Below, one piece after another: positions 3,344 through 49,329 of a stretch of DNA of 64,000 nt. The first letter of the stretch is position 1. Each line of letters opens with the position of its first letter. Location of the stretch: positions 29,541-93,540 of the forward strand of contig JAEUHX010000076.1 of the NCBI GenBank assembly GCA_016792805.1, written 5' to 3'. Source of the stretch: Planctomycetota bacterium (lineage in GTDB: Bacteria > Planctomycetota > UBA1135 > JACQFD01). Below the pieces are notes generated by a model that saw only the letters and a program-made list of their open reading frames with translations, had not been told where the DNA came from and made no database searches. The translations under genes and the position numbers were made by a program.

Positions 3344-3372
3344 GCCGCTAGAACCCAGCCTGGAATCGACCC

Positions 3373-3411: not shown

Positions 3412-3489
3412 GGGCGGTTCGTCGGGCTGCGGATGAAAGGGGTATCGTCGGACGCAGCTGACCCGATCGCGCCACTCTGGGCATTGCCC

Positions 3490-6440: not shown

Positions 6441-6468
6441 CCGGTGTGAGCGCGCGTGCGCGCGTGGC

Positions 6469-8087: not shown

Positions 8088-8094
8088 TGAGACG

Positions 8095-28442: not shown

Positions 28443-30005
28443 CTACACCTTGCGCGAGACGGACTTCGCTTGGAGGAACAGCCCCAAATAATCGCGGCCG
28501 CCCGCCTTCGAGTCGGTGCCGCTCATATTGAATCCGCCGAAGGGGTGGGCGCCCACGAGGGCACCTGTGCACTTGCGGTTCAAGTAAAGATTTCCCACAA
28601 AAAACTCGTCGCGGGCGCGGGCGAGCTTTTTCTCGTCGCGAGTGAACACCGCGCCGGTGAGGCCGAACTCGGTGCCGTTGGCGATTCGGAGCGCGTCGCC
28701 GAAATCCTTGGCGCGGATGACGGCGAGCACCGGGCCGAAGATCTCCTCTTGGGCGATCTTCCCCGTGTCGGGAACGTCGATGATGACCGTCGGCTGGAGG
28801 AACCAGCCGGCGCCCGGCGCGACACCTCCGCCCGTCAGCAGCTTCCCTTCGCGCTTGCCCGCCTCGATGAACTCAAGAATCTTGCGGCGCGCGCCTTCAT
28901 TGATCACCGGGCCCATGCTCGGGTTGCGCTCGGCGGGGCCGACGGTGATCGCCTCGACCTCTTTCTTGAGCTTCGGAATGAACTCGTCGTAGACCGCCGT
29001 GTCGACGATGGCGCGCGAGCAGGCGGAGCATTTTTGACCTTGGTAGCCGAAGGCGCTCGCTGCGACGGCCTTGGCGGCGACGTCGAGGTCGCAGTCGCGG
29101 TCAACGATGATGGCATCCTTTCCGCCCATCTCGAGAATGGTGCGCTTCAGCCACAATTGTCCAGGGTGAACCTTCGCGGCGCGCTCGTGGATCTGGATGC
29201 CGACTTCTTTGGAGCCGGTGAATGCCACAAATCGAACCTTGGCGCTCTCGACGAGGCGGTTGCCGATGGTGGAGCCGCCGCCGGTCACGAAGTTCAACAC
29301 TCCGGCCGGGATGCCGACCTCGCGCAGCAAGCTCACTAAATCGGCGGCGATGGCGGCCGAGTCGGAGGCGGGCTTCAGGATCACCGTGTTGCCGGTGACG
29401 AGCGCCGCCGTCGTCATGCCCGTGAGGATCGCCAGCGGGAAGTTCCAAGGAGGAATCACGGCGCCGACGCCGAGCGGAAGATACAACAGCTCGTTGCGCT
29501 CACCCGCAATCGGGGTCACGCGGCTCGGATCGGGGCCGCCATAGCGCAGCGCCTCGAGGGCGTAGAACTCAAGAAAATCGATCGCCTCCGCGGTGTCGCC
29601 GTCGGCCTCCGCCCAATTCTTGCCGACTTCATACACCATGCGCGCGGAAAAGTGATGCTTGCGCGCGCGCATGAGCTTGGCTGCGTCGAGCAGGTATTGC
29701 GCGCGCCGCTCCCAGGAGACCTTCGACCACTGCGGGAACGTGCGGTAGGCGGCCTCGATGGCGCGGTCGGCGTCGGCGATCGTGCCGAGCGGGAAGCGGC
29801 CGAGGATGTGCGTCGGCTCCGACGGATCGATCGACTCGAAGAGCGGGCGATCGACGACCTCCTCGCCGTCGATCCACATCGGGTGCGTCTTCCCGCTGCG
29901 CGCGCGCACGTCCTTGAGCGCCTGCTCAAACGCGCGGCGATTCTCGGGTGTCCACTCGGTGAACGGCTCGTTGGTGAAGGTGCGGGCTTGGAGATTGACC
30001 GGCAT
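28443..30005 (-). CDS. pruA: 1-pyrroline-5-carboxylate (L-glutamate gamma-semialdehyde) dehydrogenase
   Basis: ALDH motifs are FTGSKEVG, LEMGGKDAIIV and GQKCSACSR. The N-terminus and length match PruA/RocA-type enzymes. Confidence 0.85.
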   Translation of the reverse strand: MPVNLQARTFTNEPFTEWTPENRRAFEQALKDVRARSGKTHPMWIDGEEVVDRPLFESIDPSEPTHILGRFPLGTIADADRAIEAAYRTFPQWSKVSWERRAQYLLDAAKLMRARKHHFSARMVYEVGKNWAEADGDTAEAIDFLEFYALEALRYGGPDPSRVTPIAGERNELLYLPLGVGAVIPPWNFPLAILTGMTTAALVTGNTVILKPASDSAAIAADLVSLLREVGIPAGVLNFVTGGGSTIGNRLVESAKVRFVAFTGSKEVGIQIHERAAKVHPGQLWLKRTILEMGGKDAIIVDRDCDLDVAAKAVAASAFGYQGQKCSACSRAIVDTAVYDEFIPKLKKEVEAITVGPAERNPSMGPVINEGARRKILEFIEAGKREGKLLTGGGVAPGAGWFLQPTVIIDVPDTGKIAQEEIFGPVLAVIRAKDFGDALRIANGTEFGLTGAVFTRDEKKLARARDEFFVGNLYLNRKCTGALVGAHPFGGFNMSGTDSKAGGRDYLGLFLQAKSVSRKV

Positions 30006-30066
30006 GGCGCGGGCTAGGAAAGGGGGGCGAGCATTCTAGCTGGCGAGTAGGCTGGCGCGGACTCCC

Positions 30067-31797
30067 ATGGAGCGATCGTCGAAGCAGGGTGTGGCGTCCG
30101 ATCCCGCGCGCGCCGGGGTGAGTCGGCGGCATTTGTGGTCTTCCACCGCCGTTCGCGCCGCGATCTTGGTGCTTGGGATTGCGGGAGTCGTCGCTCTAGC
30201 TTGGGTCACCCGGCCGGATTTGGAGGAGGGCGCGGACCCGTTTTGGGCGCCGCCTGAGCTCGGCAGCCACGGTCCGAAGTCGGAGCCGGCTGTGGCACAA
30301 GGGCTTAGCGATTCGGAACGCCGAGCCGCGAGCGCGACGGCGGAAGACGACAGCGTCCGAGTGCCTAGCGCGCCTCTCCACTCTCGGCCGCCGATGCGGC
30401 TCTCGATTCGCGTCCAAGGGCTCGATGGGCAGCCGCTCGCCGGGGCTGCGGTGCGTGTCTCAAACCGGTTTGCCTTCTTCGTCAAGGAGGCTGATCGCAT
30501 CTGGGAAGCAACAAGCAACGACAATGGGCTAGCCGTTCTGGAAGATTGGCCAAGCGGAGTGCCCGCGATCGTATCTGTCACATCTCCTGGTCTTGTCTTC
30601 TTTGAACGAGAGTTCTCCATATCGCCACTCCAATACGATCAGGAGGTGGTGCAGAAAGCCATATCCCAAGCGGGAACGATTCGCGGCCGCCTCATCCGGC
30701 GATCAACGATGCGCGCAGTGGCAGGCAGCGTCGATGCGAGCTTCGGGGGATCAATCGAGAGCGGTGATTTCCATGACTCGAGCAGTGGAATCGAGGCAGC
30801 ATCCGATAAGGATGGACAATTCATCATGTATGGTCTTTCAGCCGGGAAATGGACTGCATTCGTTCGGTCGAGTTCTACAAGAGATCGGGTCATGGAATTC
30901 ACGCTTGTCTCGGGCGAGGACCGAGACCTCGGCGACATATTCTTGGAGGAACGACTCACATTGGAAGGTCATCTGAGGAATACCAATGGATCCCCGCGAG
31001 TCGGGGTCCGAGTCTCAACGCGTGAGGCTGCGTGGCGCTCGGACTTTGGCGAACATGATGATATCACAGATGCCGTCGGCCGCTTTCGAGTCCAAGCCGC
31101 GTCGTGCATGAATGGTGTGCAATTGTGGGGGTGGGAAGCAGGGAGTTCGGATTCCGTTGTGAGGCTGCTTGGGAGTTTCGACAAGCCCATGAGTGACCTC
31201 TCCCTTTCCTGGGAGCAATTCGGAAACCTCGACGTCGTAGTGCCGAGTTCGGGGGGAATGCGTCCGGGTACACGGGTGATCGTCGAGCTTGAACCGATTC
31301 AGGCGCGCGTTCACACACGGGCACTTCGTCGAATCGGCAAGGCCGGGGGCGACGCCATCCAGTTTCGTTCGCTGCCTCCGGGAGAGTACGCGATCATAGC
31401 CTTCGGATCTGAAGCGTCACGATTTCGACAGAGAGGATTCATCACAATCCCAGAGAGTGCAGATCTCACCCGCCACACATGCATTCTCGAGGAGGAGCGA
31501 ACAGGTCCACGCATTCGAATTGTCGACACAAGCGGAGTTCCGATAAGTTGCGTTCGAGTGGTATGTTATCAGGGTGTTGGTCAAACTGATTACTTCAACG
31601 CGACTATCCGAACAACGGACTTTGATGGGTATGCAGTGCTTGAGGGAGCAGCTGGGAAGATCCGGCTCAACGTAAGAGGGGCAGGCTTGAAATCCTGGTC
31701 GAAGAAGTTCGACCTCCCCGACGTCGCAGCCGACATCGACCTCGGGACCTTTCAGCTCGAGCGTCTCACAGATCCGCAACGCGCGAAGAAGCGTTGA
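30067..31797 (+). CDS. Single-pass membrane protein with CarboxypepD_reg-like beta-sandwich repeats (family member A)
   Basis: The N-terminal TM is AVRAAILVLGIAGVVALAWV. It is a paralog of 32868..34574 (LAVLEDWPSGVPAIVSVTSPGLVF versus LVMFEDWPSGIPFRIVVTAEAHVY; GTIRGRLIRRS versus GGVRGRLVSRS). Part of the gene counts 45-52% G+C (31501-31620). Confidence 0.7.
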   Translation: MERSSKQGVASDPARAGVSRRHLWSSTAVRAAILVLGIAGVVALAWVTRPDLEEGADPFWAPPELGSHGPKSEPAVAQGLSDSERRAASATAEDDSVRVPSAPLHSRPPMRLSIRVQGLDGQPLAGAAVRVSNRFAFFVKEADRIWEATSNDNGLAVLEDWPSGVPAIVSVTSPGLVFFEREFSISPLQYDQEVVQKAISQAGTIRGRLIRRSTMRAVAGSVDASFGGSIESGDFHDSSSGIEAASDKDGQFIMYGLSAGKWTAFVRSSSTRDRVMEFTLVSGEDRDLGDIFLEERLTLEGHLRNTNGSPRVGVRVSTREAAWRSDFGEHDDITDAVGRFRVQAASCMNGVQLWGWEAGSSDSVVRLLGSFDKPMSDLSLSWEQFGNLDVVVPSSGGMRPGTRVIVELEPIQARVHTRALRRIGKAGGDAIQFRSLPPGEYAIIAFGSEASRFRQRGFITIPESADLTRHTCILEEERTGPRIRIVDTSGVPISCVRVVCYQGVGQTDYFNATIRTTDFDGYAVLEGAAGKIRLNVRGAGLKSWSKKFDLPDVAADIDLGTFQLERLTDPQRAKKR

Positions 31798-31871
31798 TCG
31801 CGCCAATCGCAGCGCTTGGATTGAAGCGCTTTGCGAATCACACGCAGGCGCATACCCCTTCCTCACTACGG

Positions 31872-32861
31872 ATGATCCTCCTCGCGCTCCTGTTGCAGTC
31901 GGCTCCAGCACTCGAGCTAGACGACATTCTCCGGGCCCAGCGCGCGGCGGCAACGCAGCTGCGGCAGGGAATTGTGGTTTGTAAGTTTCGGTCCTATCTC
32001 CATACCCTGGGCACAAAACCGTACTCGACCGAAGGCCGGCTCTATTTCGGCTTCGACGGAGAGCGATTGAGAGTGGAATCCGCTTTGTGGGGATTCCAGC
32101 CGGGCGCCGCGGAGCCGACGTTGTTCGAATCCGTTGAGGTCGTTCACGAGTCGGGGGCGTTTCAGCTACAGAAGAGCGGAGCCTGGGAGCCATTTCGTCC
32201 CCAAGATGTGCGCTTGGTGGTCGACCCTCGGACGCTCGGGCGATCCTGGACCTCGCCGCAACAGGGGCTCGCGGAGAGCCTTGCGTCTCTTGGTTTTGCG
32301 CCTCCCGAGGTTCGCGAGCTGCATCCAGGCGTCCTTCGGCTCGAGGCGAGCAAGCAAGGCGATTCGATCCCGCCTGCACAGCGTGCCAGTTTTGTTGCAG
32401 ACCTCCATCGGCAGAAAGGATTTGTATTTCAGCGCGCTGTCATGCTTAGGGAGAACGGGCAGCCCTTTCGACAGATAGCGATCTCGGACTGGGCTGAGTC
32501 TCGAGATTCTTGGCTTCCGGTGCGTGCTACGCAGAAGAGCTTCACTTCTTCGGGCCAATCCTTGTCCGAGCTCGACATGGCACTTCGGTGGAGCGGAGTG
32601 AACGCGGCGCCGGTGAATGTGGATTGGTTCTCAAAGGAGAATCGAGCGACGTCGGGCGAGCCATTGAAATGGTCCTTCGGTGATCTTGATCAGCTCGCGG
32701 CCGTCGCGGGGCCGTTGACTCTCGATCCCGCGTCGGGGGCGAGCCACGGACCGGAGCCGACGGTTCGAATCCTCAAAAGTGCAGCGGCTCTGCTCGGTGT
32801 CGCCTCGCTCTTGGGGCTTTTCATCATCCTGCTCGTTCGTCGAAGCAAAGCCCGGCATTAG
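31872..32861 (+). CDS. Secreted hypothetical protein with a C-terminal TM anchor and basic tail
   Basis: The signal peptide MILLALLLQSAPA starts at ATG 31872. An alternative is TTG 31794, which overlaps the upstream TGA. The C-terminus is ...GPEPTVRILKSAAALLGVASLLGLFIILLVRRSKARH. The body is beta-rich, and a LolA-like fold is only a guess. Confidence 0.6.
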   Translation: MILLALLLQSAPALELDDILRAQRAAATQLRQGIVVCKFRSYLHTLGTKPYSTEGRLYFGFDGERLRVESALWGFQPGAAEPTLFESVEVVHESGAFQLQKSGAWEPFRPQDVRLVVDPRTLGRSWTSPQQGLAESLASLGFAPPEVRELHPGVLRLEASKQGDSIPPAQRASFVADLHRQKGFVFQRAVMLRENGQPFRQIAISDWAESRDSWLPVRATQKSFTSSGQSLSELDMALRWSGVNAAPVNVDWFSKENRATSGEPLKWSFGDLDQLAAVAGPLTLDPASGASHGPEPTVRILKSAAALLGVASLLGLFIILLVRRSKARH

Positions 32862-32867
32862 CCATCC

Positions 32868-34574
32868 ATGAGCCAATCCCAAAGTCGTTGGGCGTGGGCC
32901 TTCGCGAGCCTGGCCGTCCTTTGCCTCCTGGCATGGATCGCGCTGGATCGCATCTCGCGCAGCGCGGAAATAACAGTTCAGAACTCGATGCGAGAGCACG
33001 CACACAATTTCCTCGCGGCCGAATCGGCAAACGACATTGCCGCCGCTTCGCCCTCAACGGCTCGGCGGCTCTCCGAATCGGCGCCCGCATCCGTCGGCGA
33101 GTCGGCGCCTCCGGCAAGCTCGCCCCTCTGGACGCCGAGACGGCCGCCCACGTGCCTGCGCGTACGCGTCTTCGGGCAGGGCGATGCGGTTATCGCAGGA
33201 GCACTTGTGGTAGTTTCTCCGGAGTGCAGCCCTGATTTCTACTATCAAGGCAAGCGCCTCGCGGAGAAGACCGACGCCGCCGGACTTGTGATGTTCGAGG
33301 ATTGGCCGAGCGGCATTCCGTTTCGAATTGTGGTAACTGCAGAAGCCCACGTCTACCGCGAGCGGGTCATTCATCCTCCGCCCGATCGAAAGGACTTCGA
33401 CATCGAGGTGCGTCCGGAGTTCGGCTTAGGAGGCGTCCGGGGGCGCCTCGTCTCTCGCTCGTCGGGCGCTGGAGTCTCGGGCGCCCTCGACGTGGAGCCT
33501 AATCGCCCGATGGATCCCGTTCGCGACGCGCGGACGGGTTATGCCCGCTCGACCGTCACTGACGCGGAGGGGCGATTTCAATTTGCGGGGCTCACGCCGG
33601 GCACATGGAAGCTCTTCGCCGGATCGCACGCGACATCCGTTGCAACAATTCCTGTGACGGTGACCGAATCCACAATCGTGGAGCTCGGAGACGTGCTCCT
33701 GGAGGATCCGGTGTACCTCGAGGGCGTGTTGCTCGACGAGGATGGGAACCCCATGCCGGGGATTCAATTAAGCAGCTCCGCGTTTCCAGCGCATCGGATG
33801 ACAACTCAATACAATACCAAGGGGGTTCCCTGGGTGCGGAAAACGGAGAAGGACGGCAGCTTCCGCCTGCAGGCCCAATATGCCGGCGCCATCACCAGGA
33901 TCATGGGAAACGACTATCGATCTCCCGCGCACCATGGATTCGATCGGATCTTCGGCCCATTCACCGCACCTGCCCGCGACTTGCGGCTTGTCTGGAAACG
34001 CTACGCCGATTTGGTGGTTCGCGCTCGGCTCAAGGAGAGCGGGCGACCCGCAACGCAAGCTCTCGGCTCGCTTGTCACTACCGACCCGAAGAACAATCAG
34101 TCGATTGGAACCGTCAATGTGGACGCCGATCCGGTCACCGGCGAACTCCGATTTGTGGGTGCGCCTCCGGGGCAATACTCGATACGCGTCTTGACTCATG
34201 ACGGCAGCGGGGCGGCGGTATCGATAGAAGTCTTGGTTCCTGAAGTTCAATCAACACACTATTTCACGGTTGAGCTGCCGGAGCCAAAGGGGAAGATTCG
34301 GGCTCGGTTCATCGATTCTCGGAGCTCCCCCATTAGCCTCCTGCCTGTTCGTGCATTCTGGGGGCGTTCCACAAGCGGCCACCCCTGCATCCTTCGAAGA
34401 GAGACTCGGTTCTCCGGTGACATTCAATTCTATGGAATCGTCGGTTCGATTCGACTCGAAGTCAACGATCCGGAGTTCGAGCCCTGGTCTAGAGAGATCG
34501 ACGCGCCGAATGGTGATTTCGACGTCGGCACCGTCGTGCTCTCGCGCCTTCCCGAATATTGCGTTACAAAATGA
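32868..34574 (+). CDS. Single-pass membrane protein with CarboxypepD_reg-like beta-sandwich repeats (family member C)
   Basis: The N-terminal TM is WAFASLAVLCLLAWIAL. It is a paralog of 30067..31797 over its whole length and starts 6 nt after the preceding stop. Confidence 0.7.
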   Translation: MSQSQSRWAWAFASLAVLCLLAWIALDRISRSAEITVQNSMREHAHNFLAAESANDIAAASPSTARRLSESAPASVGESAPPASSPLWTPRRPPTCLRVRVFGQGDAVIAGALVVVSPECSPDFYYQGKRLAEKTDAAGLVMFEDWPSGIPFRIVVTAEAHVYRERVIHPPPDRKDFDIEVRPEFGLGGVRGRLVSRSSGAGVSGALDVEPNRPMDPVRDARTGYARSTVTDAEGRFQFAGLTPGTWKLFAGSHATSVATIPVTVTESTIVELGDVLLEDPVYLEGVLLDEDGNPMPGIQLSSSAFPAHRMTTQYNTKGVPWVRKTEKDGSFRLQAQYAGAITRIMGNDYRSPAHHGFDRIFGPFTAPARDLRLVWKRYADLVVRARLKESGRPATQALGSLVTTDPKNNQSIGTVNVDADPVTGELRFVGAPPGQYSIRVLTHDGSGAAVSIEVLVPEVQSTHYFTVELPEPKGKIRARFIDSRSSPISLLPVRAFWGRSTSGHPCILRRETRFSGDIQFYGIVGSIRLEVNDPEFEPWSREIDAPNGDFDVGTVVLSRLPEYCVTK

Positions 34575-34607
34575 GCGCTGGCCACCGCGGAGACGTGAAT
34601 GACACAG

Positions 34608-36542
34608 CTACTTAGGCTGCGCTTCGACGGAGATGGAGTGGATCGCCGAGGCGGGGGAGGCAAGGGCGAGCGCTTCAACGCGAAGCCACGTGGCTCCGGC
34701 GGGCACATCGAGCCAAGCATCCGGCGGGACGGGGGAGCGATGGATCTTTCCGTCTTTGCGCCACGTGAGGAGCGGTGGCGCCGACTGTTTTGTACCATCA
34801 GGCCACAGAACGAGCCCCTCGACATGGACGCGCACGCGGCCGACGCCGGAGAGGTCGAGGACCGGCAGCGCCACTTGCTCTCCCTGCCGTTCGCCCACGC
34901 GCTTCGCTGCGGGATGCAGAGTCTCCGCGGCCTGCGGAAACTGTAACGGGAACGGCTCCCGATCGGCGGGGAGGGAAAAGACCAACGATTCGCCCGCTTG
35001 GAGCCGCCGCGCCGGAGCGGGATTGCTCCAATCGACGAGCTGCTTGCTCTCCCAATCCATCCGGAAGAGCGCATCCACGTCGAACACCGCCGAATAGAGC
35101 GCCGTCGGCTCGAGGTCGCGGCGGCCAGCGAGCGCCGGTAGGGCGAACTCGAGCTCGCTCTGCACCCCTTCAATCAAATCTGGAAGTCCATAGATCGCGA
35201 TCTGTGACTTCTGCGGCAGCTTTGCCAGCTCCGCGCTGCTCGCCTGCGCGGCGACCTCAATCGCCTGCGCCGCGCGCCGGTAGGCGCCGAGGTTCCATTG
35301 CCCGATACCGAGGCTCGCCGCCAGCGCGGCCGCGGGAATCGCCCAGCGAAGGCGTCCTGCACCAGCGAAAGCCCATAAAAGCGACAGCCCGATACCGGGA
35401 GCATACAGATGCCGCACATGGGTCAGATAGGGGTCGAGCGGGAACTTCGGAAGCGTCGTCGCGAGAAGCAGCAAGAAGACGGCGCCTCCGACCACTAACC
35501 CTCTCCGCGCCGCCGCGCGCGCCGGCAGAAAAGCCAGCGCGGCCACGGGGAGCGCGCTCGCGATTCCTTCCACCCAGGGTCCGACGCCCGGGCGCACCGG
35601 CAGCCAGCTCCGCGCCGGGAGGTCGGTCGCGAAGGCTTCGGCCGCAGTCGCGAGCGTTTCTGCGGAGAGCATCTTTTTCCCGGTGATCGGATCCACATAT
35701 CCGCCGAACCCGCCGAGGAAGGCCCATCTCGCCACAAATCCAGAGCCCACCACCGCTGCGAACGGCATCGCCGCCCGCACCCCCGCACGCCAGCGGCCAA
35801 GGCGCCCGCGGCATCCGGCCAGAAATGCCACACCTACGATGGGATAAATGGTCTCCTTCGAGAGCACGGAGAGCGCGCAGAGCGCGGCGGCGCCCGCCAC
35901 GCGTCCCGCGCTCGCGCCGCGCGGGGGAATGCACAAAAGAGCCGCCCACGCAAAACCCGTCGAGAGCAGCAGCTCGGCATTGGTGATCCACGCCGCCGTG
36001 TCGAGCCCCGACGGGTGCGCCGCAAAGAGGAGCGCGCCCGCGAACGAGAGGCCGCGCGGCGCCCCGAGCCTGCGCAGCACCGGGCCCGCCAGCGCGGCGT
36101 TGGCCGCGAAAAGTATTGTGCACAAAATGTGCCCCGCGGCGGCGTCCGTCGGCGCAAAGCGTCCGAGGAACCACCACAAAACCCACACCACCGGGCGAAA
36201 CCACATCTCGCCCTTCGAAGGATTGAGCAACGCGTCGAACGGGTGGGGGCGCAGGCCGTGGAATCGCAGGTGCGCCCAATCGTCCGAAAAGTAAGGAAAG
36301 GCCAGCGTGGGCGCGGCCGCAAGCGCCGCCACCAGCGCCGGAGCGCCGAGCAGAATCCAACGGCTGCGCGGCGAGCGCAGATCGCATACGCGTCCGCGCC
36401 CGCGGGCGAGGAACGCCGCTGCGAGCGCGAGCGCCGCGATATGGCATCCATTGACGCCCGCCGGGCCGAGCAGGGCCAGCGCGGGGTTCACCGCCAGCAG
36501 TGCAGCCAGGGCGGCGAGGAGGGCTCGAACCGCTCGATCCAC
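34608..36542 (-). CDS. Polytopic membrane protein, putative GT-C-fold glycosyltransferase (PMT/TMTC/ArnT-like)
   Basis: There are at least 10 hydrophobic segments in the N-terminal roughly 400 aa. An acidic motif in the first loop (FPYFSDDWAHLRF...MWFRPVVW) resembles the GT-C DD/DE loop. The soluble C-terminal domain is about 230 aa. Confidence 0.5.
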   Translation of the reverse strand: MDRAVRALLAALAALLAVNPALALLGPAGVNGCHIAALALAAAFLARGRGRVCDLRSPRSRWILLGAPALVAALAAAPTLAFPYFSDDWAHLRFHGLRPHPFDALLNPSKGEMWFRPVVWVLWWFLGRFAPTDAAAGHILCTILFAANAALAGPVLRRLGAPRGLSFAGALLFAAHPSGLDTAAWITNAELLLSTGFAWAALLCIPPRGASAGRVAGAAALCALSVLSKETIYPIVGVAFLAGCRGRLGRWRAGVRAAMPFAAVVGSGFVARWAFLGGFGGYVDPITGKKMLSAETLATAAEAFATDLPARSWLPVRPGVGPWVEGIASALPVAALAFLPARAAARRGLVVGGAVFLLLLATTLPKFPLDPYLTHVRHLYAPGIGLSLLWAFAGAGRLRWAIPAAALAASLGIGQWNLGAYRRAAQAIEVAAQASSAELAKLPQKSQIAIYGLPDLIEGVQSELEFALPALAGRRDLEPTALYSAVFDVDALFRMDWESKQLVDWSNPAPARRLQAGESLVFSLPADREPFPLQFPQAAETLHPAAKRVGERQGEQVALPVLDLSGVGRVRVHVEGLVLWPDGTKQSAPPLLTWRKDGKIHRSPVPPDAWLDVPAGATWLRVEALALASPASAIHSISVEAQPK

Positions 36543-37486: not shown

Positions 37487-39523
37487 TCAGCGCCCACGCG
37501 ACAGGGCCGGATGGCGCGCCAGCTCCTCCGCGGCCAGCGCCGCGCGCGCCGCGTGAGCGGCCGCCCGCGGCAGCCAGCCGCCGGAGTGGAAATCCAGGTC
37601 GCGAGTCGTGGCGCGCCCCGTGTTGAGGAGCGGAGCGGGGGAGATCGCCGCGACGAGCGCCGCCGTCTCGTTCCAACGGGCGACCGCGAGGTGCACGCCC
37701 GCCGATGCGCCCTGGCCGGCTCCGGTGTGGAGGAGCACCGGCACGGCTCCCGTGCCGCGGATGAGATCGCAGAGCGTGCGCAGGTTGCGGCCCAGCGCGA
37801 GACGGCTCGGCTCCGTGATCGTGGGCTCGTCGGGAAGCGGGCGCTGCGCGCTCCGCACCGCGCGCAACGGAACGCCGCAGCGCGATGGGTCGCGCCCCAC
37901 CCGCGGCGGCACCCGATCCCAAGGGAACTGCTCCCCGATCTCGAACGGCTTTCGCGCGTGGGATCCGTCCGTTCGGAACCCAGGCGTCAGGATCGGCAGG
38001 CTGTCCTCGAGGTCGTGGGCGAGGATCACCATGTCGGGCCGAACACTCTCGGCGCGAAGGTGCCACGCGGCGAGCGACTCGGCCGTCGTGTAGCCGGGAA
38101 ATGCAAAGTTCACGACTTCGGCGCCGGCGATGCCCCGGCTGCGAAGCTCCGCTTCGAGGCGCCGCGGGAAGCTCTCCGGCTCAGTGCACAAAAGCCCATA
38201 AGCAGAGGATCCTCCGAGCACCACAATTCGAGGTGCCGCCTTTTCCGCGGCAGGAAGCGGCCCGCGGCCGCCAAGCGAGTTGTGCGGGCCGAGCGTGCCG
38301 GCGGCTGGGCCCGACCGCGGACCATACAAAAGGAACGGGAGCGGTTCGACGGCGGCGCCGCTGCGGAGCGCCTCGGTTTCCACGCACTCCGGCGCCGCAT
38401 CCACAATTGGATCATTCACCCGATCGGGAACGCGAAAGCGCGCGGGCTCCGCGGGCGCGGGCCGCTCGAGAAGTTTCTTTTCCACACACGCTTTTGCGAG
38501 CAGCTCGGCGAACCGCGCCGCGCCCTCGGAAGTGTGGTGAACGGGATCGTCGCCAAAGAAGCTACCCGCCGACGGAAACGATCGGGAAATATCCACCATC
38601 GGTACCTGGTGCGCCTGCGCGAAGCGGCGCGTGCGATCGTTCATCGCCTCCATCTTCTCCTGCCAAGCTTGGCTCAGCGGCCGATAGGTGTGCGGCACGA
38701 GCAGGAGGGCAATTCCACGATAAGTTGCAATGGAATGAACCCCGGTCAGCGCGCGCTCCCACGGGGACGACCCGCCCGAAACCGGCCGGCTCACGGGGCG
38801 CGATGCGGGCCCCGAGAGGCCGCGGTTTCGCTGCGTCCAGTACGACAGGGCCGAGCGGCCCGGCGGAACCAAAAGCGAATCTTGAAGGACTTCCACAAAA
38901 AAGCTCTTTCTGAGCAATCGCTGCGGCGTTGACCACTCGCACTCTTCCTCGGTCCAAACTCTCCGCAGCTCGAGCGGCGAGCTGGCAAGGTGCTCCGCCG
39001 TCAGATCATTGGCGCCGTGGTAGACCACGAGCAAGTCGGGCTCATGGTCGAGCACCTTCAACAAAAGCTGAAAGAACGTCTCCGTGCCCGTGTAGCCCGG
39101 CACACCAAAATTGAGAACCTCAACATTCTTATCCGGCCGCATAGCGCGCAGCCAATCCTCAAGCTGTACCGGATAAGTTTCTTCCTCGCCGAGTGAGGTT
39201 CCAAACGTCGTCGAGCCGCCGAGGCATGCGATGCGAAACACCCCAGCCGGCTTCGCAATGGGGCGATCAAGCCCGCGAAGCCCCATGCGGGACACGCGCT
39301 CTCCCGTGCCCTTTTGTGTATTCGGCGCGAGCTCCCAGACGAGGTAGGGATGGGGGCGGTAGATCGACGGCTTCTCGAGCGCTCCCAGCTCGGCGCCGGC
39401 CCGCCAAGCAATCGCGCGCAGCAGCCCTTCCGCGAGCAGGACGGCGAGCGCGCAGCCGAGAGCCAGCGCGCGCAGGCGCGCAGAGACCCGATGCGTGGGA
39501 ACCCGATGCGTGGGCGTGCCCAT
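37487..39523 (-). CDS. Membrane-anchored protein with two tandem SGNH/GDSL-hydrolase-like domains
   Basis: The N-terminal TM is [19 protein letters not shown]. Block I-like motifs occur twice ([13 protein letters not shown]; [12 protein letters not shown]). A DxxH-like block follows the first domain (GDDPVHHT). Confidence 0.7.
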
Positions 39524-39607
39524 GGGAACCTGTCGGCGCCGTCCCGGTGCGGTGGGTGCGGCGCTCGTGCGCGGAAGATACTCGCGGGTCGGCTCGCCCG
39601 CCCGTGG

Positions 39608-39811
39608 CTACGCCAGCAGATCCAGCAACGTGCCGAGAGTCCGATCGGCCACCTTCACGACGGCGGCGCCGGTCTCCACTTCGAGTTCCGCCACGCGCAG
39701 TTCCACGATCGGCTCGGGCTCGATCTCGCCCGCGGCAAGGCGCTCGGCGGCGCGCGTCATGCGCGTCTCGCCCGCCTGCATCATCGAAAGGCCGATTCCC
39801 GCGATCTCCAT
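39608..39811 (-). CDS. Small hypothetical protein (67 aa), weak YjfB/'putative motility protein'-like pattern
   Basis: The product is [26 protein letters not shown]...[19 protein letters not shown]. Third codon positions are strongly G/C as in neighbouring genes. It lies 84 nt upstream of the SGNH gene on the same strand. I recognise the family by pattern only. Confidence 0.4.
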
Positions 39812-39945
39812 GCTGCCGTTCTCGGCCGGCGTGCGCCGCCGCCGGAGCGGCCGGGCGATCTTTTCCGCAAGCCCTGCGCGCGCTGCGCGGGCTTTCCGAG
39901 CGCCCGGAGCAGTTTCGCCACCGGCTCCTATACTCCGCGCCCCCT

Positions 39946-41493
39946 ATGACGCAGTCGCCCCACGAACGCCTTCAGCACATGCGCCGCGAGTCCGAGATGG
40001 GCGGCGGCCCCGAGCGCATCGAGCAGCAGCACAAGAAAGGGAAGCTGACGGCGCGCGAGCGCGTCGCGTTTCTCTTGGACGACGGCTCGTTCCTCGAGAG
40101 CGACCGATTTGTGACCCACCGCTGCACCGACTTCGGCCTCGACCAGCAGAAGTTCCTCGGCGACGGCGTCGTCACCGGGCACGGCCGCATCGATGGGCGC
40201 CCGGTGTTCGTCTTCGCGCAGGATTTCACCGTGTTCGGCGGCAGCCTCTCGGAGGCCCACGCGGCGAAAATCTGTAAGATTCTCGACCAGGCGATGAAAG
40301 TTGGGGTTCCGGTGATCGGGCTCTGCGATTCCGGCGGCGCGCGCATCCAAGAGGGCGTCGTCTCCCTGGGCGGCTACGCCGACATCTTCCTGCGCAACAC
40401 GCTGGCGTCGGGAGTGGTGCCGCAGATCTCTGCGATCCTCGGGCCTTGCGCGGGCGGCGCCGTCTACTCCCCGGCGCTGACCGATTTCGTGTTCATGGTG
40501 GAGGGCACTTCCTATCTGCACATCACCGGCCCCGACGTGGTGAAGGCGGTGACCCACGAAGATGTAACCTCCGAGCAGCTCGGCGGCTCATCGGTGCACA
40601 TGCAGAAATCGGGCGTGGCTCATTTCGCCGCGCGCGACGACCGGGAGTGCTTGACACAAATCCGAGAGTTGATGTCGTACCTTCCGCTCAATAATGCGGA
40701 GGATCCGCCGGTCATTCCCTGCGAAGACGATCCGCTGCGGCGCGACGCGAAGCTCGATTCGATCGTGCCGGCCGATCCGCAGAAGCCCTACGACATGAAG
40801 GACGTGATCAAGCTCGTCGTCGATCACGGGAAGTTCCTCGAGGTGCAGCGCGATTTCGCGCGCAACATGATTGTCGGATTCGCGCGGCTCGGTGGGCGCT
40901 CCGTTGGGATTATTGCCAATCAGCCCGCCCACCTGGCCGGCTGCCTCGATATCGACGCATCGGTCAAGGGCGGCCGCTTCATCCGCTTCTGTGATGCGTT
41001 CAATATTCCGATCCTGACGTTCGAGGACGTCCCCGGGTTCCTCCCGGGCACACACCAAGAATACGGCGGCATCATCCGGCACGGCGCGAAGCTTCTATAT
41101 GCTTATTGTGAAGCCACCGTTCCGAAGCTCACGGTCATCACGCGCAAAGCCTATGGCGGCGCCTACGACGTGATGGCAAGCAAACACATCCGCGCCGATT
41201 TGAACCTCGCGTGGCCCGGCGCCGAGATCGCCGTCATGGGAGCGGAAGGTGCGGCGAAAATTATCTTTCGCCGGGAGATCCAGTCGGCGTCCGATCCGAA
41301 GGCCGAGGAGGCGCGCAAGATTGCGGAGTACCGCGAGAAGTTCGCCCATCCCTATCACGCGGCCTCGCGCGGCTACATCGACGACGTGATCGAGCCGAGC
41401 GAGACGCGATCGAGGCTCATCGCCGCGCTCGAATTGTTGCGCACGAAGCGCGACCGCAACCCGCCGCGCAAGCACGGGAACATCCCGCTGTAG
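39946..41493 (+). CDS. pccB: Acyl-CoA carboxylase carboxyltransferase subunit (propionyl-CoA carboxylase beta / methylmalonyl-CoA carboxyltransferase-like)
   Basis: I place the start at ATG 39946 ([15 protein letters not shown]). Motifs are [35 protein letters not shown] and [10 protein letters not shown]. The track start at 39193 is an extension. Confidence 0.9.
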
Positions 41494-41521: not shown

Positions 41522-42211
41522 ATGTCCGGTATGCCTCGAGCGGCTTGGTGGGCTGCGGCGATCGCAGCGCTGGTGCTCGCGGCGATCTCGCTTTTCGTTT
41601 GGCTCTCGTGGCCGCATCTCCCCGATCCGCTCTCGGCCTCTGAAAGAGCTCGAGAGCTCGGCCGAAACCGGCTGCGCGCGCTGCTGCGGGCCCACGGAGC
41701 CGACGCCAGCGCTTCGGTTTGGCGGGAGACGGAATCGCTGCGGGCGGTTGTTCTGGAGGATGAGTGGAGCCGTAAGCAGCTCTCGGGGGCTCAACTCGTG
41801 CTCTGGCCCGCCTCCGATCGCCTCGTCCTGGGCTCGACCGATACGTTGGCCTTTGAACTTCGCTCCCTCCGCTACCTGGCGTCGCTGCCGTTCAAATTCG
41901 CGGACCCCGGGGTGGTCGTTGCCGAGATGGAGCCGGAGCCTGCCACGGGATATCCGCGGCTGCTGATTGGCTTCGAGCCGAGACCCGGCGCTCCCGAGGG
42001 CGACCGCTATGCCGCCATGATCCACCCGGAGACGGGGCGGCTCGCGGCGCTGGAATACCGCCCCACGGAGGTCTTCTGGCCCGCCGGCGTACGCGTGCGC
42101 TACCGATGGATCGAGGGTCCGCGCGGCCTGCTGCTCCCCGAGTCGATCGTGGCCTACACCGTGCCCTTCGGCCTCAGAACCCACTCGATCCGTCTCCGGA
42201 GCTGGAGGTAA
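41522..42211 (+). CDS. Membrane-anchored hypothetical protein
   Basis: The N-terminal TM is AAWWAAAIAALVLAAISLFVWL, followed by a beta-rich periplasmic part. I recognise no motif. Confidence 0.55.
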   Translation: MSGMPRAAWWAAAIAALVLAAISLFVWLSWPHLPDPLSASERARELGRNRLRALLRAHGADASASVWRETESLRAVVLEDEWSRKQLSGAQLVLWPASDRLVLGSTDTLAFELRSLRYLASLPFKFADPGVVVAEMEPEPATGYPRLLIGFEPRPGAPEGDRYAAMIHPETGRLAALEYRPTEVFWPAGVRVRYRWIEGPRGLLLPESIVAYTVPFGLRTHSIRLRSWR

Positions 42212-42348: not shown

Positions 42349-45300
42349 ATGGGAAATCACGTGGCACGAGACGCAGCGATCCAGGATCTCGAGCACCAAT
42401 TTTGGGCTTGGCGTTTTGTGGTATTTGGGGCGAAGCTCGGAAAGACTCCGGAGGTGCGTCCCGAAGAGAGCGCCGAGGTTCTCGCGGAGAGATGGTTCAT
42501 CTTGGGGCAGAGCCTGCTCATGGGGCTGGCGCAGTTCATCATTCGCGATGAGCATCTCGCGGAAGAGGCGGTGGCGGATGCGCTGAGGAAGTCCAAGGAA
42601 GCTGCCGAAGGGTTCGACGGCCGGTGTCCTGTCTATTGGTGGCTTCGGAAAATTGTTCGGCGTGCTTCGATCCACCAGGCCAACAAACGGAGCCGTCGAC
42701 AGGACGCGATTCCGTTCGCCGACGCGCCGGTCGAGATCATTGCTGCTGACCGCGATCGATCCTTGGTGAGCGCGGCAGATCTCGAAGCGGCCATTGAGGC
42801 CATTATTGCGAGTCTGCCCGAGAAGCAGGCCACTGCCATTCATCTCCTGCTCTTTCAGGAGATGACCATTTCCGAGATTGCACAATTGCTTGGCGATAAG
42901 TACGATGCGGTCCACTCTCGCGTGTACGAAGCGAAGCTCAAGCTTCGAGATGAGCTCAGGCGCAAGGGGTTTTCGCTTGCGGTGCTTGGGGAGGTTCCGC
43001 TCTTGGCGAATGCGATGCGATCCGTCAAGCCGAGCAGCGAAGCGACTGCGCGGATCGCGGCTTTGGCGCGCGCGCCGATGCGAAGAGGTGTCATCCGTCA
43101 GCCCTGGTTCATGGGCTCCATGGCGGCGGCGTCGGCTGCGGCTCTGCTGGCATCGATCAGTGTGCATGCATGGGCGATCGATGCTTCGGGCGGGTCACAG
43201 AGCATCCGTGGCGACGTATCCCACGAGAATGGAAATCAGCCCACAAATCCAAGTGTCGCAACGATGCCTGGCGTCGGCGGCAAGACGAGCCCGGCGCAGG
43301 CCGTCGCATCCAGCGGCGGCTACGGGGTTTCGGGGCGGATCCTGATGCCGCAATCACAAAACGGAGTGCCCGTGCCGGTCGCGGCCGGAGAAGTCCGCTA
43401 TCGCGACAACGACGGCAATGAACGGCTCCTGGCGGCCATTGTGAACGGCGAGATCGTGTCCGTTTCGGACTTGCCGAAGGGCCTGAAACCGGGGCGGATC
43501 ATTTTCATCGATAGCGCGAAGAGCGCGGCGCGCGTCGAATTTGTAAGGGCGCCAGGCCCCAATACTGAGATTTCACTTTTTCCGGGATGGAATGATCTCG
43601 GCGTGCTGACGCTCGATCCCATTGCTTGGGTGAGTGCAAGTGTGATGTATTCCAATGGCACTCCTGCGCCGGGAATGTACATTGCATTCTCCTCGGATCT
43701 GAAATCTCCCGCGGCGGGGCGTTTCAACGGTACCGTGCGTACAGATGGCGATGGGCACGCACGGTTTGCCGTTCCGGCCGGTGTTCAGACGAAGATTCGC
43801 GTCTACGCAGCCGATTACACCTCTGAGCCTCAGATCATGACTCTGGCTCAGGGCCAAGAAGTGGGAGCGGCTCCGTTCACTCTTCCCGATCTCGTGAAGG
43901 CGAAGTACCGATTCGTGACTCCCGCGGGCGGAAGCATTCATGCGCCGATGCTGCGGAAGAAGTCGGACGGCCTCGTGACGGCGAATCTCCAGGTACAGCC
44001 AAGCTCCGATCCGGAGGTGGTGGAGGTGTTGCGCAAGCCGAATGTCCCGCTTGCGATCGATCTCTGGTTGACGCCGAAGGACTTCGTTGCTGTGACTTTG
44101 CCTCCGCTTTCGGAATCGGTCTCCGAGCCGATTCCCATCGCCGTTGCCGCGGACACTTGGACTGCGAGAATTGCGCGCCCCACGGCTGTGAGCGAAGGCG
44201 AGCTCGTTACAGTTGTTATCCCGGGCGCAGCGCGGCCGATCTTTGAGAAGGAGGTTCCATTCGGAGCTTTCCTCGATCTCTCACTGCCTCGTCCGGAGTC
44301 CGCAAACAGCCCGCTCACGGTCTGGGTCCTCAAGGACGGCCACCCCGTTGGGATCTGGAATTGGACTGTCGCACAAAAAACATGGGCCGAGGGACAGGCC
44401 CCCGCAGAGCTCTCAAAGCCCGAAGTCACCTGGGCGCCTCAGGTTCTCGACGCGGAGGGATCGCCGATTCCCGGCGCGACCGTCGGCGCTCGATTGGGCG
44501 ATCGGACGGTCTATGCGGAGGTCACCAATACCGAAGGACGAGCAACGCTCTCGGCGATTCCGTCGAGCGAGCTCACCTTCTATGTCGTTGCTCCCCAGTA
44601 TGCGCCGTGGATTCTGGAGCCGCCTCATGCGGGATCGAGCCTTCCGGCGACCGTTCCGCTCGCCCGGGTATCGTGGCTCGAGCTGCGACAGCTGAGTGAA
44701 GACCACGGATCGGAAAAGTGGTCTTTCACTCCGCCGGAGGAGATTCTTGAAGGGAATCGGGCGAACGACCGTGGAACGAGGATCTTCCGCGTGCCTACCG
44801 GTGCCGTTGTCAGAATTCCTATTTGGGTTACGGGAGGCCGGTTCGGTCGGGCGCGCCAGTCCGGTCCCCTCGATACCTCGGTGGTCGACTCGATCGATCT
44901 CGCCTTCGTACCGGGGGAGACCATCACGCTCGATCTCACCCAGGGGCTAACGGATGGGGTGGCTTCGATGGTGGCCAGCACGGGCGGGCTCTCTCCCGCC
45001 AATTTGGCGTGGGGCGCATTGTCCACGGACGACAAATTCCTGGCCGTCGGGCGAATTCAGAATGACGGTTCTTTCGACATTCGTGGGTTCGTGGACGGGG
45101 CCGTGGTGGATGTCTTTCCGATGGCTATGGGCGCGCTGAGCCCCGGCTCGAATCCCGAGGAGGTCAGGCGACGCATTGAAGCTCTCCGCGCGAACCCGCT
45201 GACTCGGGAATCCGTTGCCACGATCAAGATCCGAGCGGGAAGGTCGGGACAGTCCGCCGGGAATCCGGTGGGTGTCGATTTCTCGTCCATTGCCGCAACA

Positions 45301-45582
45301 GTTGCACTCCGCCCGGACGCGCTTCTTCCCGGAGAAAGTTTGGATCTGCGCGTCGTGCCCAATGTTTTCTCCTCCGTGAATGAATCGTTCCGAGCTCGTT
45401 ACGAGTTACAAAATGGTGATGAGGTGCAATTGGCGGCGGGCGCTTATGTGGTGAGACTGCGGCTGCAATCGCCACGGGCGATTCCGGGATACACCCTCGT
45501 GTCCCAGCCCGGATTGGCAGGCTCGGCAGTCTTCGAAAGATCGATGGAGGTGAAGCCCGGCGAGCGAATCGAGCTGCCTTAG
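42349..45582 (+). CDS. ECF sigma-factor domain fused to a TM helix and a large extracytoplasmic beta-sandwich repeat region
   Basis: Sigma region 2 is present (DEHLAEEAVADAL...PVYWWLRKIVRRASIHQANKRSRRQ), as is region 4 (LPEKQATAIHLLLFQEMTISEIAQLLGDKYDAVHSRVYEAKLKLRDEL). A hydrophobic helix WFMGSMAAASAAALLASISVHAWA lies at about nt 43104-43172. About 800 aa follow with CarboxypepD_reg-like units (VLDAEGSPIPGATVGARLGDRTVYAEVTNTEGRATL). I place the start at ATG 42349. Confidence 0.7.
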   Translation: MGNHVARDAAIQDLEHQFWAWRFVVFGAKLGKTPEVRPEESAEVLAERWFILGQSLLMGLAQFIIRDEHLAEEAVADALRKSKEAAEGFDGRCPVYWWLRKIVRRASIHQANKRSRRQDAIPFADAPVEIIAADRDRSLVSAADLEAAIEAIIASLPEKQATAIHLLLFQEMTISEIAQLLGDKYDAVHSRVYEAKLKLRDELRRKGFSLAVLGEVPLLANAMRSVKPSSEATARIAALARAPMRRGVIRQPWFMGSMAAASAAALLASISVHAWAIDASGGSQSIRGDVSHENGNQPTNPSVATMPGVGGKTSPAQAVASSGGYGVSGRILMPQSQNGVPVPVAAGEVRYRDNDGNERLLAAIVNGEIVSVSDLPKGLKPGRIIFIDSAKSAARVEFVRAPGPNTEISLFPGWNDLGVLTLDPIAWVSASVMYSNGTPAPGMYIAFSSDLKSPAAGRFNGTVRTDGDGHARFAVPAGVQTKIRVYAADYTSEPQIMTLAQGQEVGAAPFTLPDLVKAKYRFVTPAGGSIHAPMLRKKSDGLVTANLQVQPSSDPEVVEVLRKPNVPLAIDLWLTPKDFVAVTLPPLSESVSEPIPIAVAADTWTARIARPTAVSEGELVTVVIPGAARPIFEKEVPFGAFLDLSLPRPESANSPLTVWVLKDGHPVGIWNWTVAQKTWAEGQAPAELSKPEVTWAPQVLDAEGSPIPGATVGARLGDRTVYAEVTNTEGRATLSAIPSSELTFYVVAPQYAPWILEPPHAGSSLPATVPLARVSWLELRQLSEDHGSEKWSFTPPEEILEGNRANDRGTRIFRVPTGAVVRIPIWVTGGRFGRARQSGPLDTSVVDSIDLAFVPGETITLDLTQGLTDGVASMVASTGGLSPANLAWGALSTDDKFLAVGRIQNDGSFDIRGFVDGAVVDVFPMAMGALSPGSNPEEVRRRIEALRANPLTRESVATIKIRAGRSGQSAGNPVGVDFSSIAATVALRPDALLPGESLDLRVVPNVFSSVNESFRARYELQNGDEVQLAAGAYVVRLRLQSPRAIPGYTLVSQPGLAGSAVFERSMEVKPGERIELP

Positions 45583-45915: not shown

Positions 45916-46461
45916 ATGTCTTCGGTGGTCACTCTTCTCGGCTCGGTCTCTCCGGCAACGGCGAGCGCGATGATCGACGGGCTCGCTCCCAAGCTCGGAT
46001 GGTCAACAAAACCGGAGGATATCCTGGGCGCCAAGCTCTGCCTCGACGAAGCCTCGTTTGTAACCATTTTTTCGGTATTTCCCGTTGCGAACGCGGGCGA
46101 GTTTCCCTCGGTCCTGGCGATCAGCGACTTCGGCCAGATCTATAAGTTCGTCGTTACAGGTGCGAGCGCGTCTCTTCCAACGGGAGAGACTGCAACGATC
46201 GTCTCGGCGAGCTATGGAGTCTCGAAGAAGACCAAACATGTGATCTTTCGCCTGACCACACTGGCGGCCTCTGACGGATCCACGAAGGAGGTCAAGGTGT
46301 GCAAGTGTAAGGATGGGGCGGCGGAGGCGTTGCTCGACGGCGATCCGGTTCTCTGCTACGTGGAATGGGTCTGGGTTCCCTTTCCTCGGCCCCTCTGCCT
46401 CAACGACGAGTGCCCCATCGAATGTCGCTTCCAGGAGTCCATCTGCTCTTGTTCCCAATAA
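45916..46461 (+). CDS. Orphan hypothetical protein with a Cys-rich C-terminus
   Basis: A GGAG lies 8 nt upstream of the ATG. No signal peptide is evident. There are 8 Cys in the last 53 aa (CKCKDG...LCYVEW...PLCLNDECPIECRFQESICSCSQ). The antisense ORF 46003..46554 is Arg-rich and unlikely to be real. Confidence 0.55.
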   Translation: MSSVVTLLGSVSPATASAMIDGLAPKLGWSTKPEDILGAKLCLDEASFVTIFSVFPVANAGEFPSVLAISDFGQIYKFVVTGASASLPTGETATIVSASYGVSKKTKHVIFRLTTLAASDGSTKEVKVCKCKDGAAEALLDGDPVLCYVEWVWVPFPRPLCLNDECPIECRFQESICSCSQ

Positions 46462-46846
46462 TCGTGGCTTCCTAGGTTCCAGGGGCTTCGATCGGGTCTC
46501 GTTGTTCTTCGAGCACGTGGTTGGAGAACCGCTCTCCAGCGGTTCGAAGTTCACTTTTCGCGAGATTGAGGAGAGACGCGTGAGGCGTAGCCAAGGAGTT
46601 TCGTCGATCGCGGCTCGACGGTGAGATTGCGAAGAGGGGACGAGAAGCGCCGGAATGAGTCCTTCAGCGGCCTGCCCGGAATCCGCGAAGGAATCCGTTC
46701 TTGCGTTGGCGGCGAGACGCCATTCGCCGAGCGTCAGCTTCGGCGCCGACGAGACGAGCGAACACTTATCGGACGGCGTCCGGCTTCGAACCGCGGCGCT
46801 TTCCCTTCGAGCGCCAGCTCGGTACGGTCATGGGGAACTGCGCCCC

Positions 46847-48867: not shown

Positions 48868-48920
48868 CGAACGCTCGATTGTTGAGAATTTGGCGTGGCC
48901 GACCATGGCGCGCCCGCGGA

Positions 48921-49329
48921 TAGCGAGTCATCACTCGGGAAGAATGGGGCGTGGTCGGTCTTGGCGCGGCAGCGGACAGTCCAAGAGGCCATTCCGGGAT
49001 AAGTTTGATTTGAGCACTCGGGAAGAAAGGGGCGTGGTCGGTCTTGGCGCGACAGCGGACAGTCCTCGACGCTCGGCGGCCCATCGGCTGCGCAGAATCC
49101 GACCGGCGCTTCGCGCCCGTCGGATTCTGCGCGCGCCATGGCCTCGCGTCTGCGGAACTCGCCGCGCCAAGACCGACCCACGCCCCATTCCAAGCCGTCC
49201 CGCATCTGTGAAGCGGATGGGGGGTGCGACCTGGCGCGGCAACATCCCCACAGATTCCTTCGTTGTCGCCGTAGGGCGCGGGCATCGCCCGCGACGATCT
49301 CGCGCGCGCTTGCGCGCGCGGATGAAGAA
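48921..49329. repeat. MITE-like nested-palindrome intergenic repeat, copy 2 (with a duplicated left arm)
   Basis: It has the same blocks as 6469-6918. The left arm is present twice (48933-48995 and 49016-49066). It lacks the hairpin-rich segment of about 145 bp found at 6548-6692 in copy 1. Confidence 0.8.

Follow-up and report, generated by a model that had tools for sequence, protein, structure and literature searches.

A stretch of 64,000 nucleotides from a planctomycete contig (JAEUHX010000076.1; hereafter the window) carries, within 30067-34574, three co-directional genes on the + strand, which we call A, B, and C. The products of A and C are paralogous rods of tandem beta-sandwich domains that belong to a narrow protein family, and B encodes a secreted protein that is anchored the opposite way and that recurs with rod genes in two distant metagenomic contigs. 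Our preferred reading, held tentatively and with slightly less than even confidence, is that the three proteins serve as joint or alternative subunits of a non-enzymatic assembly that is fixed in the cytoplasmic membrane and reaches into the periplasm. A sequence-only reading of the same DNA had described an accessory envelope module. That description is supported: each of the three products is anchored in the membrane and lies mostly outside the cytoplasm, the A/C architecture is very rare, and Pfam, NCBIfam, and PADLOC returned no enzyme family match for any of them.

The rods A and C and their family

Gene A (30067-31797) encodes 576 amino acids (aa) and gene C (32868-34574) 568 aa. The two proteins align collinearly, A residues 31-569 with C residues 13-563, at 28% identity (BLASTP E=5e-49), so the paralogy that had been claimed for them holds over their full length. 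The motif blocks that had been quoted for the pair, EDWPSG[VI]P, G..RGRL[IV].RS, and D..G.F...GL..G.W..F, are all present in the alignment. A is the most divergent member of the family, and its FGPF block is degenerate (LGSFDKP).

The claimed topology was borne out as well. A Kyte-Doolittle scan found one hydrophobic segment in each protein, at residues 29-47 in A, 8-26 in C, and 304-322 in B. In A, a cytoplasmic tail of 28 aa precedes the transmembrane (TM) helix (30151-30207). Five lysines and arginines lie in the N-terminal flank of this helix versus one after it, which places the N-terminus inside and the bulk of the protein outside the cytoplasm. In C, the TM or signal-anchor segment (32889-32945) follows a cytoplasmic tail of only 7 residues; the N-terminus is either a signal-anchor or a signal peptide, and the bulk is likewise outside the cytoplasm. 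The two proteins have in common a flexible linker of ~60 residues rich in proline, alanine, and serine, which in A is acidic and extends to about residue 108, with the beta-sandwich array after it. Neither A nor C has a C-terminal hydrophobic segment or an LPXTG motif, and the only TM helix of each is N-terminal.

Both proteins match the Pfam family CarboxypepD_reg (PF13620), A with 59 bits over three stretches and C with 55.5 bits, above the gathering cut-off of 32.3 bits; B has no such match. An AlphaFold model of C, made from a seven-sequence family alignment (predicted local distance difference test score, pLDDT, 73), has a long N-terminal helix, a disordered linker (~30-93), and five consecutive all-beta domains of ~90 residues. 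These are D1 (residues 94-184, 33147-33419), D2 (185-280, 33420-33707), D3 (281-378, 33708-34001), D4 (379-473, 34002-34286), and D5 (474-568, 34287-34571), all on the + strand. To judge from its collinear alignment with C, A probably carries five beta-sandwich domains too. A and C are type II anchored rods, each with an N-terminal TM helix, a linker, and five beta-sandwich domains. By the dimensions of known tandem immunoglobulin (Ig)-fold proteins, each rod may be about 20 nm long.

A HMMER search with an A+C profile against 1.84 billion cluster representatives returned about six full-length, single-stretch relatives. Among them are P0005 (570 aa, E=2e-59, contig L008), P0006 (568 aa, E=1.8e-49, contig L009), P0007 (807 aa, E=1.8e-49, contig L007), and P0015 (536 aa, E=9e-32, contig L010); the further end-to-end matches were a fragment, P0050, and strain variants of A and C. 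The remaining strong matches were long generic repeat proteins that aligned domain by domain, and the matches in the representative library numbered 9194 at E<=1e-3. We define the family by end-to-end collinearity together with the N-terminal TM helix, the linker, the five domains, and the EDWPxG/RGRLV/FGPFxAP blocks. A and C belong together on this definition (E=5e-49), as do the four proteins named (E values from 2e-59 to 9e-32). To our knowledge, a function has not been established for any protein of the domain class that is built in this way.

The members of the family are about equidistant, at 21-34% identity, and A and C are no more similar to each other than either is to members found in other organisms, which means that the duplication took place long ago or that one of the two copies came in separately. 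In comparison with C, domains D1-D3 are best conserved in the family (25-38% identity) and D4 least (13-23%). Other searches returned little more. When A and B were used in word-index searches, each retrieved nothing but itself, and a further search, made with the family profile, yielded generic repeat proteins and close strain variants but nothing else. A scan of genome contigs gave a single locus, L007, and two scans each of metagenome contigs and viral contigs gave no relatives.

Gene B and its pairing with rod genes

Gene B (31872-32861, 329 aa) lies between the two rod genes. It begins with a short signal peptide, MILLALLLQSAPA, which lacks a basic n-region and which we recognize mainly because the homologues described below have clearer signal peptides. 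There follow an extracytoplasmic domain of ~270 aa, a linker rich in proline, serine, and glycine, a C-terminal TM helix (residues 304-322, 32781-32837), and the basic tail RRSKARH. After cleavage of the signal peptide, B is thus anchored the opposite way to A and C. Neither B nor its homologues, singly or as a profile, matched anything in Pfam (E<=1), NCBIfam, PADLOC, or the PDB sequences, and B appears from its sequence to found a previously unrecognised protein family. One N-terminal helix followed by strands is predicted for B, which suggests a LolA/RseB-like fold as a candidate lead; Pfam (E<=1, B and homologues) and the PDB sequences (profile) gave no match in its favor, and the sole model of B is the poor one considered below. 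The segment GPEPTVRILKS lies seven residues ahead of the TM helix. B was rejected as a PEP-CTERM protein, with no NCBIfam match at E<=0.1 and with "PEP" missing from both homologues.

The gap between B and C is 6 nucleotides (nt), and that between A and B (31798-31871) is 74 nt when B is taken to start at the ATG at 31872, as in the public annotation. An alternative TTG start at 31794 would overlap the stop codon of A. Both versions had been given correctly by the sequence-only reading. This sequence is publicly annotated in a metagenome-assembled genome (MAG) labelled "Planctomycetes bacterium" (loci JNJ88_19240 to 19250, A being JNJ88_19240) with the three proteins as given here, where A and B are called "hypothetical" and C a "carboxypeptidase regulatory-like domain-containing protein".

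In the contigs L008 and L009, the family members P0005 and P0006 are each encoded last in the same four-gene operon, which we write X-Y-Z-rod (L008 7435-11713; L009 3777-8005). X is a lipoprotein with an Ig-like DUF1573 domain and a lipobox (LLAC or LVGC); the DUF1573 match is weak and was obtained in L009 only, and the other operon genes have no family annotation. Y, of 360 or 375 aa, is homologous to B (BLASTP E=4e-25 and 9e-19) and encoded two genes upstream of the rod gene. Its parts come in the order seen in B, with a signal peptide, a ~270-aa domain, a linker, a C-terminal TM helix, and a basic tail. The alignment of B with the Y proteins contains invariant tryptophan, glycine, and proline positions and one invariant cysteine. 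Z is a secreted protein of 118 or 125 aa with ten or more cysteines. The X proteins of the two contigs are homologous to each other (E=3e-28), as are the Z proteins (E=4e-10), and all four operon products are envelope proteins.

The pairing of a B-type gene with a rod gene persists in these two contigs at 23-31% protein identity. From the gene neighborhoods, B and the rod appear to be co-conserved in a pairing that is recurrent and not universal. In L010, P0015 is encoded after NfeD, FloA, and a 197-aa membrane protein. In L007, from a GTDB MAG named "uncultured Planctomycetales bacterium", the P0007 gene stands alone between a formate/nitrite transporter gene and a PIN toxin gene. A conserved downstream neighbor of the A/C-type gene was ruled out, the gene in that position being different at every locus. 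The sequence-only reading had made its module depend on the relatedness of A and C and on co-conservation, and its refuting conditions did not hold. A and C are statistically related, and a B-type gene adjoins an A/C-type gene in L008 and L009; the three-gene form with two paralogous rods, A-B-C, was seen in the source lineage only.

In the assembly that we favor, the two five-domain type II rods would act with an oppositely anchored globular partner, in that the ~270-aa domain of B, tethered by its C-terminal TM helix, would bind the rods. The assembly would bind, space, or sense a component of the envelope, which could be a cell-wall or surface polymer or another protein, and catalysis by the module seems unlikely. 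Several points weigh against this reading. We infer the contact among A, B, and C, as we do their periplasmic location and their binding or scaffold role, and no ligand-binding residues can be named in any of the three. Since CarboxypepD_reg arrays are very widespread, the domain class is a poor guide to function, and the single-sequence AlphaFold model of B (pLDDT 38) is too poor for a fold search. Co-conservation rests on two independent contigs only. Two of the four other family loci (L007 and L010) have no homologue of B, so B is not an obligate partner, and the 64-kb window has no counterpart of the DUF1573 lipoprotein X or of the cysteine-rich protein Z.

Sigma factors, strain variation, and base composition

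One member of the family, P0007, is a sigma-factor fusion. Its Sigma70_r2 and Sigma70_r4_2 domains are joined by a TM helix to an entire A/C-type ectodomain, in which residues 319-806 match positions 106-597 of the A+C profile; a zinc-finger anti-sigma segment was not detected in the protein. To judge from this domain order, P0007 shows that an A/C-type ectodomain can serve as an extracytoplasmic input domain, and such an ectodomain would have been recruited at least once as the sensor of a membrane-tethered extracytoplasmic function (ECF) sigma factor. Because this sigma-fused relative exists, we think it more likely that the ectodomains bind or sense something than that they are purely structural, and P0007 makes such a role testable.

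The window contains a sigma fusion of its own. Gene 42349-45582 (+, 1077 aa) encodes an ECF-type sigma factor (regions 2 and 4; TIGR02937), a TM helix, and an ectodomain of ~800 aa that also contains CarboxypepD_reg domains; its start at 42349 agrees with the gene call in a related strain. The sequence-only reading had likened this ectodomain to those of A and C. The resemblance does not go beyond membership in a common domain class: BLASTP gave E values of 0.04-0.12, on which we rejected a family link, and an eight-sequence family profile gave one 68-column, single-domain match with an hhalign probability of 7%. Orthology of P0007 and the window fusion was also rejected, since their similarity (E=0.012) is confined to the sigma region. 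The signalling link that had been drawn from the window fusion survives in another form, namely that a true family member, P0007, is fused to an ECF sigma factor, while the 42349 fusion is not in the family.

A and C could be extracytoplasmic sensors or co-receptors that pass a signal, through B or through TM contacts, to a sigma or anti-sigma factor encoded elsewhere, for example at 42349-45582. Besides P0007, other CarboxypepD_reg proteins with sigma-70 regions 2 and 4 were found (P0155 and P0171), and the window fusion has a similarly low G+C content at third codon positions (GC3). Sigma factors that are fused to TM sensor extensions and freed by regulated proteolysis are established, as in IutY of Pseudomonas putida and the groups ECF48/52/53, and in the ECF52 protein SCO4117 a proline-rich segment precedes a carbohydrate-binding ectodomain (PMC8999054; for the general ECF classification, see PMC7826278). 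The proteins of the module, however, contain no sigma-70 region 2 or 4 domains, in contrast to P0007 and the window fusion. The tails of A and C, at 28 and 7 aa, leave no place for a class I anti-sigma domain (zf-HC2/RskA type) of ~50-90 residues before the TM helix, and A, B, and C matched no anti-sigma family in Pfam or NCBIfam, zf-HC2 included. A and C therefore cannot signal as sigma fusions. No sigma factor gene adjoins the module or the L008, L009, and L010 loci, and the nearest ECF sigma gene, the 42349 fusion, is related by generic domain only and lies 8 kb away among unrelated metabolic genes. We consider a sensor role of this kind unlikely.

The sigma-fusion stretch is flanked by two genes of an acyl-CoA carboxylase, one for the carboxyltransferase (39193-41493) and one for the biotin carboxylase (46625-48331). 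It is 87.8% identical in the related-strain contig L004, versus ~94% for the stretch from B to a GDSL lipase gene. Between the lipase and carboxyltransferase genes, L004 has ~890 extra bases (7305-8194, versus 39581-39605 of the window), including a 202-aa gene. The carboxyltransferase is called at 515 aa in L004, and the 766-aa open reading frame (ORF) that starts at 39193 in the window overlaps the opposite-strand lipase gene; by this comparison, the ORF is probably over-extended at its 5' end. A 229-aa TM protein (41522-42211) is encoded upstream of the fusion, and a 181-aa protein with a cysteine-rich C-terminus (45916-46461) downstream. The first was rejected as B-like (probability 1% versus the B profile) and the second as Z-like (E>=0.2 versus the Z proteins).

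Between strains that are ~94% identical, the dN/dS ratio (omega) is 0.37 for B, 0.26 for C, and 0.21 for a neighboring gene, which identifies B and C as real genes under purifying selection. Substitutions are unevenly distributed along C. Residues 1-300 have no amino-acid changes and a dS of 0-0.06. The membrane-distal part (about residues 390-568, 34035-34571, D4-D5) is highly diverged, with dS 0.8-1.6 and dN 0.13-0.30 (dN/dS ~0.15-0.2). The divergent tract (34035-35100) also takes in the 3' end of the convergent neighbor of C, where dS reaches 0.4-0.7, and it looks like a recombination import from a more distant lineage and not like targeted diversification. That neighbor (34608-36542, - strand) encodes a multi-TM protein of 644 aa with many hydrophobic segments, which is conserved in related strains and matched nothing in Pfam or NCBIfam. 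Its early loop motif FPYFSDDWAHL may resemble the acidic first-loop motif of GT-C glycosyltransferases. The divergent neighbor of A on the other side is an aldehyde dehydrogenase gene (28443-30005, - strand).

This pattern bears on whether the rods reach the cell surface, as an adhesin or as a surface-layer (S-layer) anchor, in the manner of archaeal SlaB or of the stalks of Gram-positive pilins and MSCRAMM (microbial surface components recognizing adhesive matrix molecules) proteins. The fold of C matches pilins, SdrD/Cna B repeats, and SlaB, and D4-D5 are both the most diverged part between strains and the least conserved in the family. However, the D4-D5 divergence, with its low dN/dS and its extension into the neighboring gene, marks a recombination tract and not diversifying selection. 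The rods are anchored by an inner-membrane TM helix, and in a diderm phylum five domains are unlikely to reach across the outer membrane. Neither rod has a sorting signal, whether LPXTG or another, or an adhesive tip domain. A surface role is quite improbable.

The sequence-only reading had also called the module probably horizontally acquired. The composition figures that it quoted are correct: 31501-31620 has 48% G+C (51.7% and 45.0% in its halves) and 57001-57060 has 73%. We delimited 33 genes in the window by ORF and GC3-frame criteria. The GC3 values of A (0.615), B (0.673), and C (0.677) compare with 0.765 +/- 0.035 for the 30 others (z-scores -4.3, -2.65, and -2.5). The lowest four of the 33 are A, which has the lowest, B, C, and the sigma fusion 42349-45582 (0.680), and the distance in codon bias is highest for A. 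The composition is thus atypical, as had been claimed, but the other marks of a transfer were not found. The 64-kb window has no tRNA gene, there are no convincing flanking repeats or mobile-element boundaries around 30000-34600, the neighborhood has no mobility gene, and relatives of the module proteins were absent from viral contigs. In the related strains L004 and L005 (~94% identical), B, C, and the downstream genes are syntenic, and every close relative compared carries module genes.

Family members in three other GC-rich contigs also tend to lower GC3 than the genes around them. In L007 the value is 0.84 versus 0.83-0.97 for the GC3-filtered neighboring ORFs, most of which are at 0.88 or above, and in L010 it is 0.82 versus 0.91-0.96 for the neighbors. 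The L008 operon has 0.70-0.78 versus 0.89 for three housekeeping genes, with several other L008 genes equally low, and in L009, which is richer in AT, the operon does not stand out. Weak codon adaptation, due to low expression or to fast evolution, explains these data at least as well as recent transfer does.

The locus has been rearranged in relatives. A is 99% identical in contig L006 (JGI 3300003278) and has ~98.6% DNA identity in L012 (JGI 3300015615). These contigs come from different samples and contain an identical junction, window 32527|29890, at which the middle of B is joined, with an overlap of ~14 nt, to the 5' end of the aldehyde dehydrogenase gene, with A next. The junction suggests, from short contigs, a 2.6-kb tandem duplication in related strains, A1-[repeat]-B'|aldh-fragment-A2-B-C. 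In L005 and L006, modules of a dispersed intergenic repeat lie directly upstream of B (L005:1-220, L006:1-225) in place of the A-B spacer sequence of the window (~31815-31861). The repeat is ~460 nt long, has two copies in the window (6458-6918 and 48910-49329, with blocks 90-98% identical), and contains a near-perfect hairpin, GCGCAGAATCCGAC...GTCGGATTCTGCGC; Rfam gave no match to it. No Rfam families were detected in the window, and PADLOC gave no defense-system families.

These features could mean that A, B, and C form no functional unit and are fast-evolving, weakly expressed, lineage-specific genes that became neighbors through local duplication. The very narrow distribution, the low GC3 and unusual codon use, and the instability of the locus all accord with such an origin, and promoter and terminator scans gave signals no better than chance. 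Set against this are the B-type/rod pairing kept at the low protein identities given above, the purifying selection on B and C, and the 6-nt B-C gap, which suggests co-transcription. The locus was also found at 100% identity in three Logan assemblies from independent sequencing runs, and the three proteins are intact and identical across four independent assemblies. We think it improbable that these genes are mere neighbors.

Another pair of large genes stands near the start of the window. The ORFs 2-3343 (>1100 aa) and 3352-6345 (998 aa), both on the + strand, have in common an 84-nt block of 70% identity near their 3' ends (2916-2999 and 5918-6001, respectively), which suggests another tandem pair of large paralogous proteins.

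Comparison with known systems

As an envelope gene set of planctomycete type, the module is rare and well delimited; nothing in it contradicts expectations for the phylum, and for now it is a "conserved hypothetical" that brings no surprise. Planctomycetes have very many uncharacterised CarboxypepD_reg and DUF1573 envelope proteins, and their envelope is unusual and strongly invaginated. What has been gained are three handles: a narrow rod family, a new partner family (B), and a conserved four-gene envelope operon in relatives.

In their domain class, A and C resemble the CarboxypepD_reg proteins (PF13620, transthyretin-like clan) of Planctomycetota, Acidobacteriota, and Myxococcota, whose gathering score they pass. 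Unlike the generic proteins of this kind, they have five domains in a fixed collinear order, an N-terminal TM helix, and the conserved EDWPxG/RGRLV/FGPFxAP motifs. Membrane-tethered sigma factors such as IutY and the ECF48/52/53 fusions resemble P0007 and the 42349-45582 product, with sigma-2 and sigma-4 regions, a TM helix, and a large extracytoplasmic domain; A and C differ from the IutY and ECF52 fusions in having no sigma or anti-sigma domain.

NOMO, the membrane protein of the endoplasmic reticulum, offers a further comparison. A family profile matched NOMO2 with E=1.3e-9, no single stretch passing alone. Like A and C, NOMO is a single-pass membrane protein with a rod, in its case lumenal, of consecutive beta-sandwich domains. 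Its partners in the BOS complex are NCLN and TMEM147; we noticed no sign that B is related to them, and no search for partners was made. NOMO has been described as a spacer of "beads on a string" that sets the distance between membranes, and among bacterial structures it is matched most closely by the Bacillus anthracis protein BaTIE (PMC8327139). In contrast to the type II, five-domain rods A and C, it is a type I protein with a C-terminal TM helix and at least 8 discernible domains (PMC8327139). The similarity is at the level of the domain class and would be one of analogy, not of membership. It is highly improbable that the rods and B, together with the DUF1573 lipoprotein and the cysteine-rich protein in relatives, form a Planctomycetota-specific, periplasm-spanning spacer or mechanosensing complex, a counterpart of NOMO that sets or monitors the width of the enlarged, invaginated periplasm and that in the case of P0007 reports to transcription. 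A complex that proved to space or sense the periplasm would be relevant to the question of how planctomycetes maintain their cell architecture.

The closest fold match of C in the PDB (Foldseek) is B. anthracis TIE (6fwv, E=8e-14), and the others include Gram-positive pilins, SdrD/Cna B repeats, and the S-layer stalk SlaB (8qox_B). The pilins and MSCRAMM stalks (BcpA, RrgB, SdrD, Cna) and BaTIE are tandem beta-sandwich stalks, as C is, with Foldseek E values of 1e-8 to 8e-14. A and C differ from these stalks in their N-terminal anchor, in having no LPXTG motif or sortase context, in the sequence identity of 7-13%, and in their diderm host. These rod and stalk matches do not make A and C members of the families concerned and may best be taken as analogies for what A and C could do, which is to space, to tether, or to hold a binding site away from the membrane.

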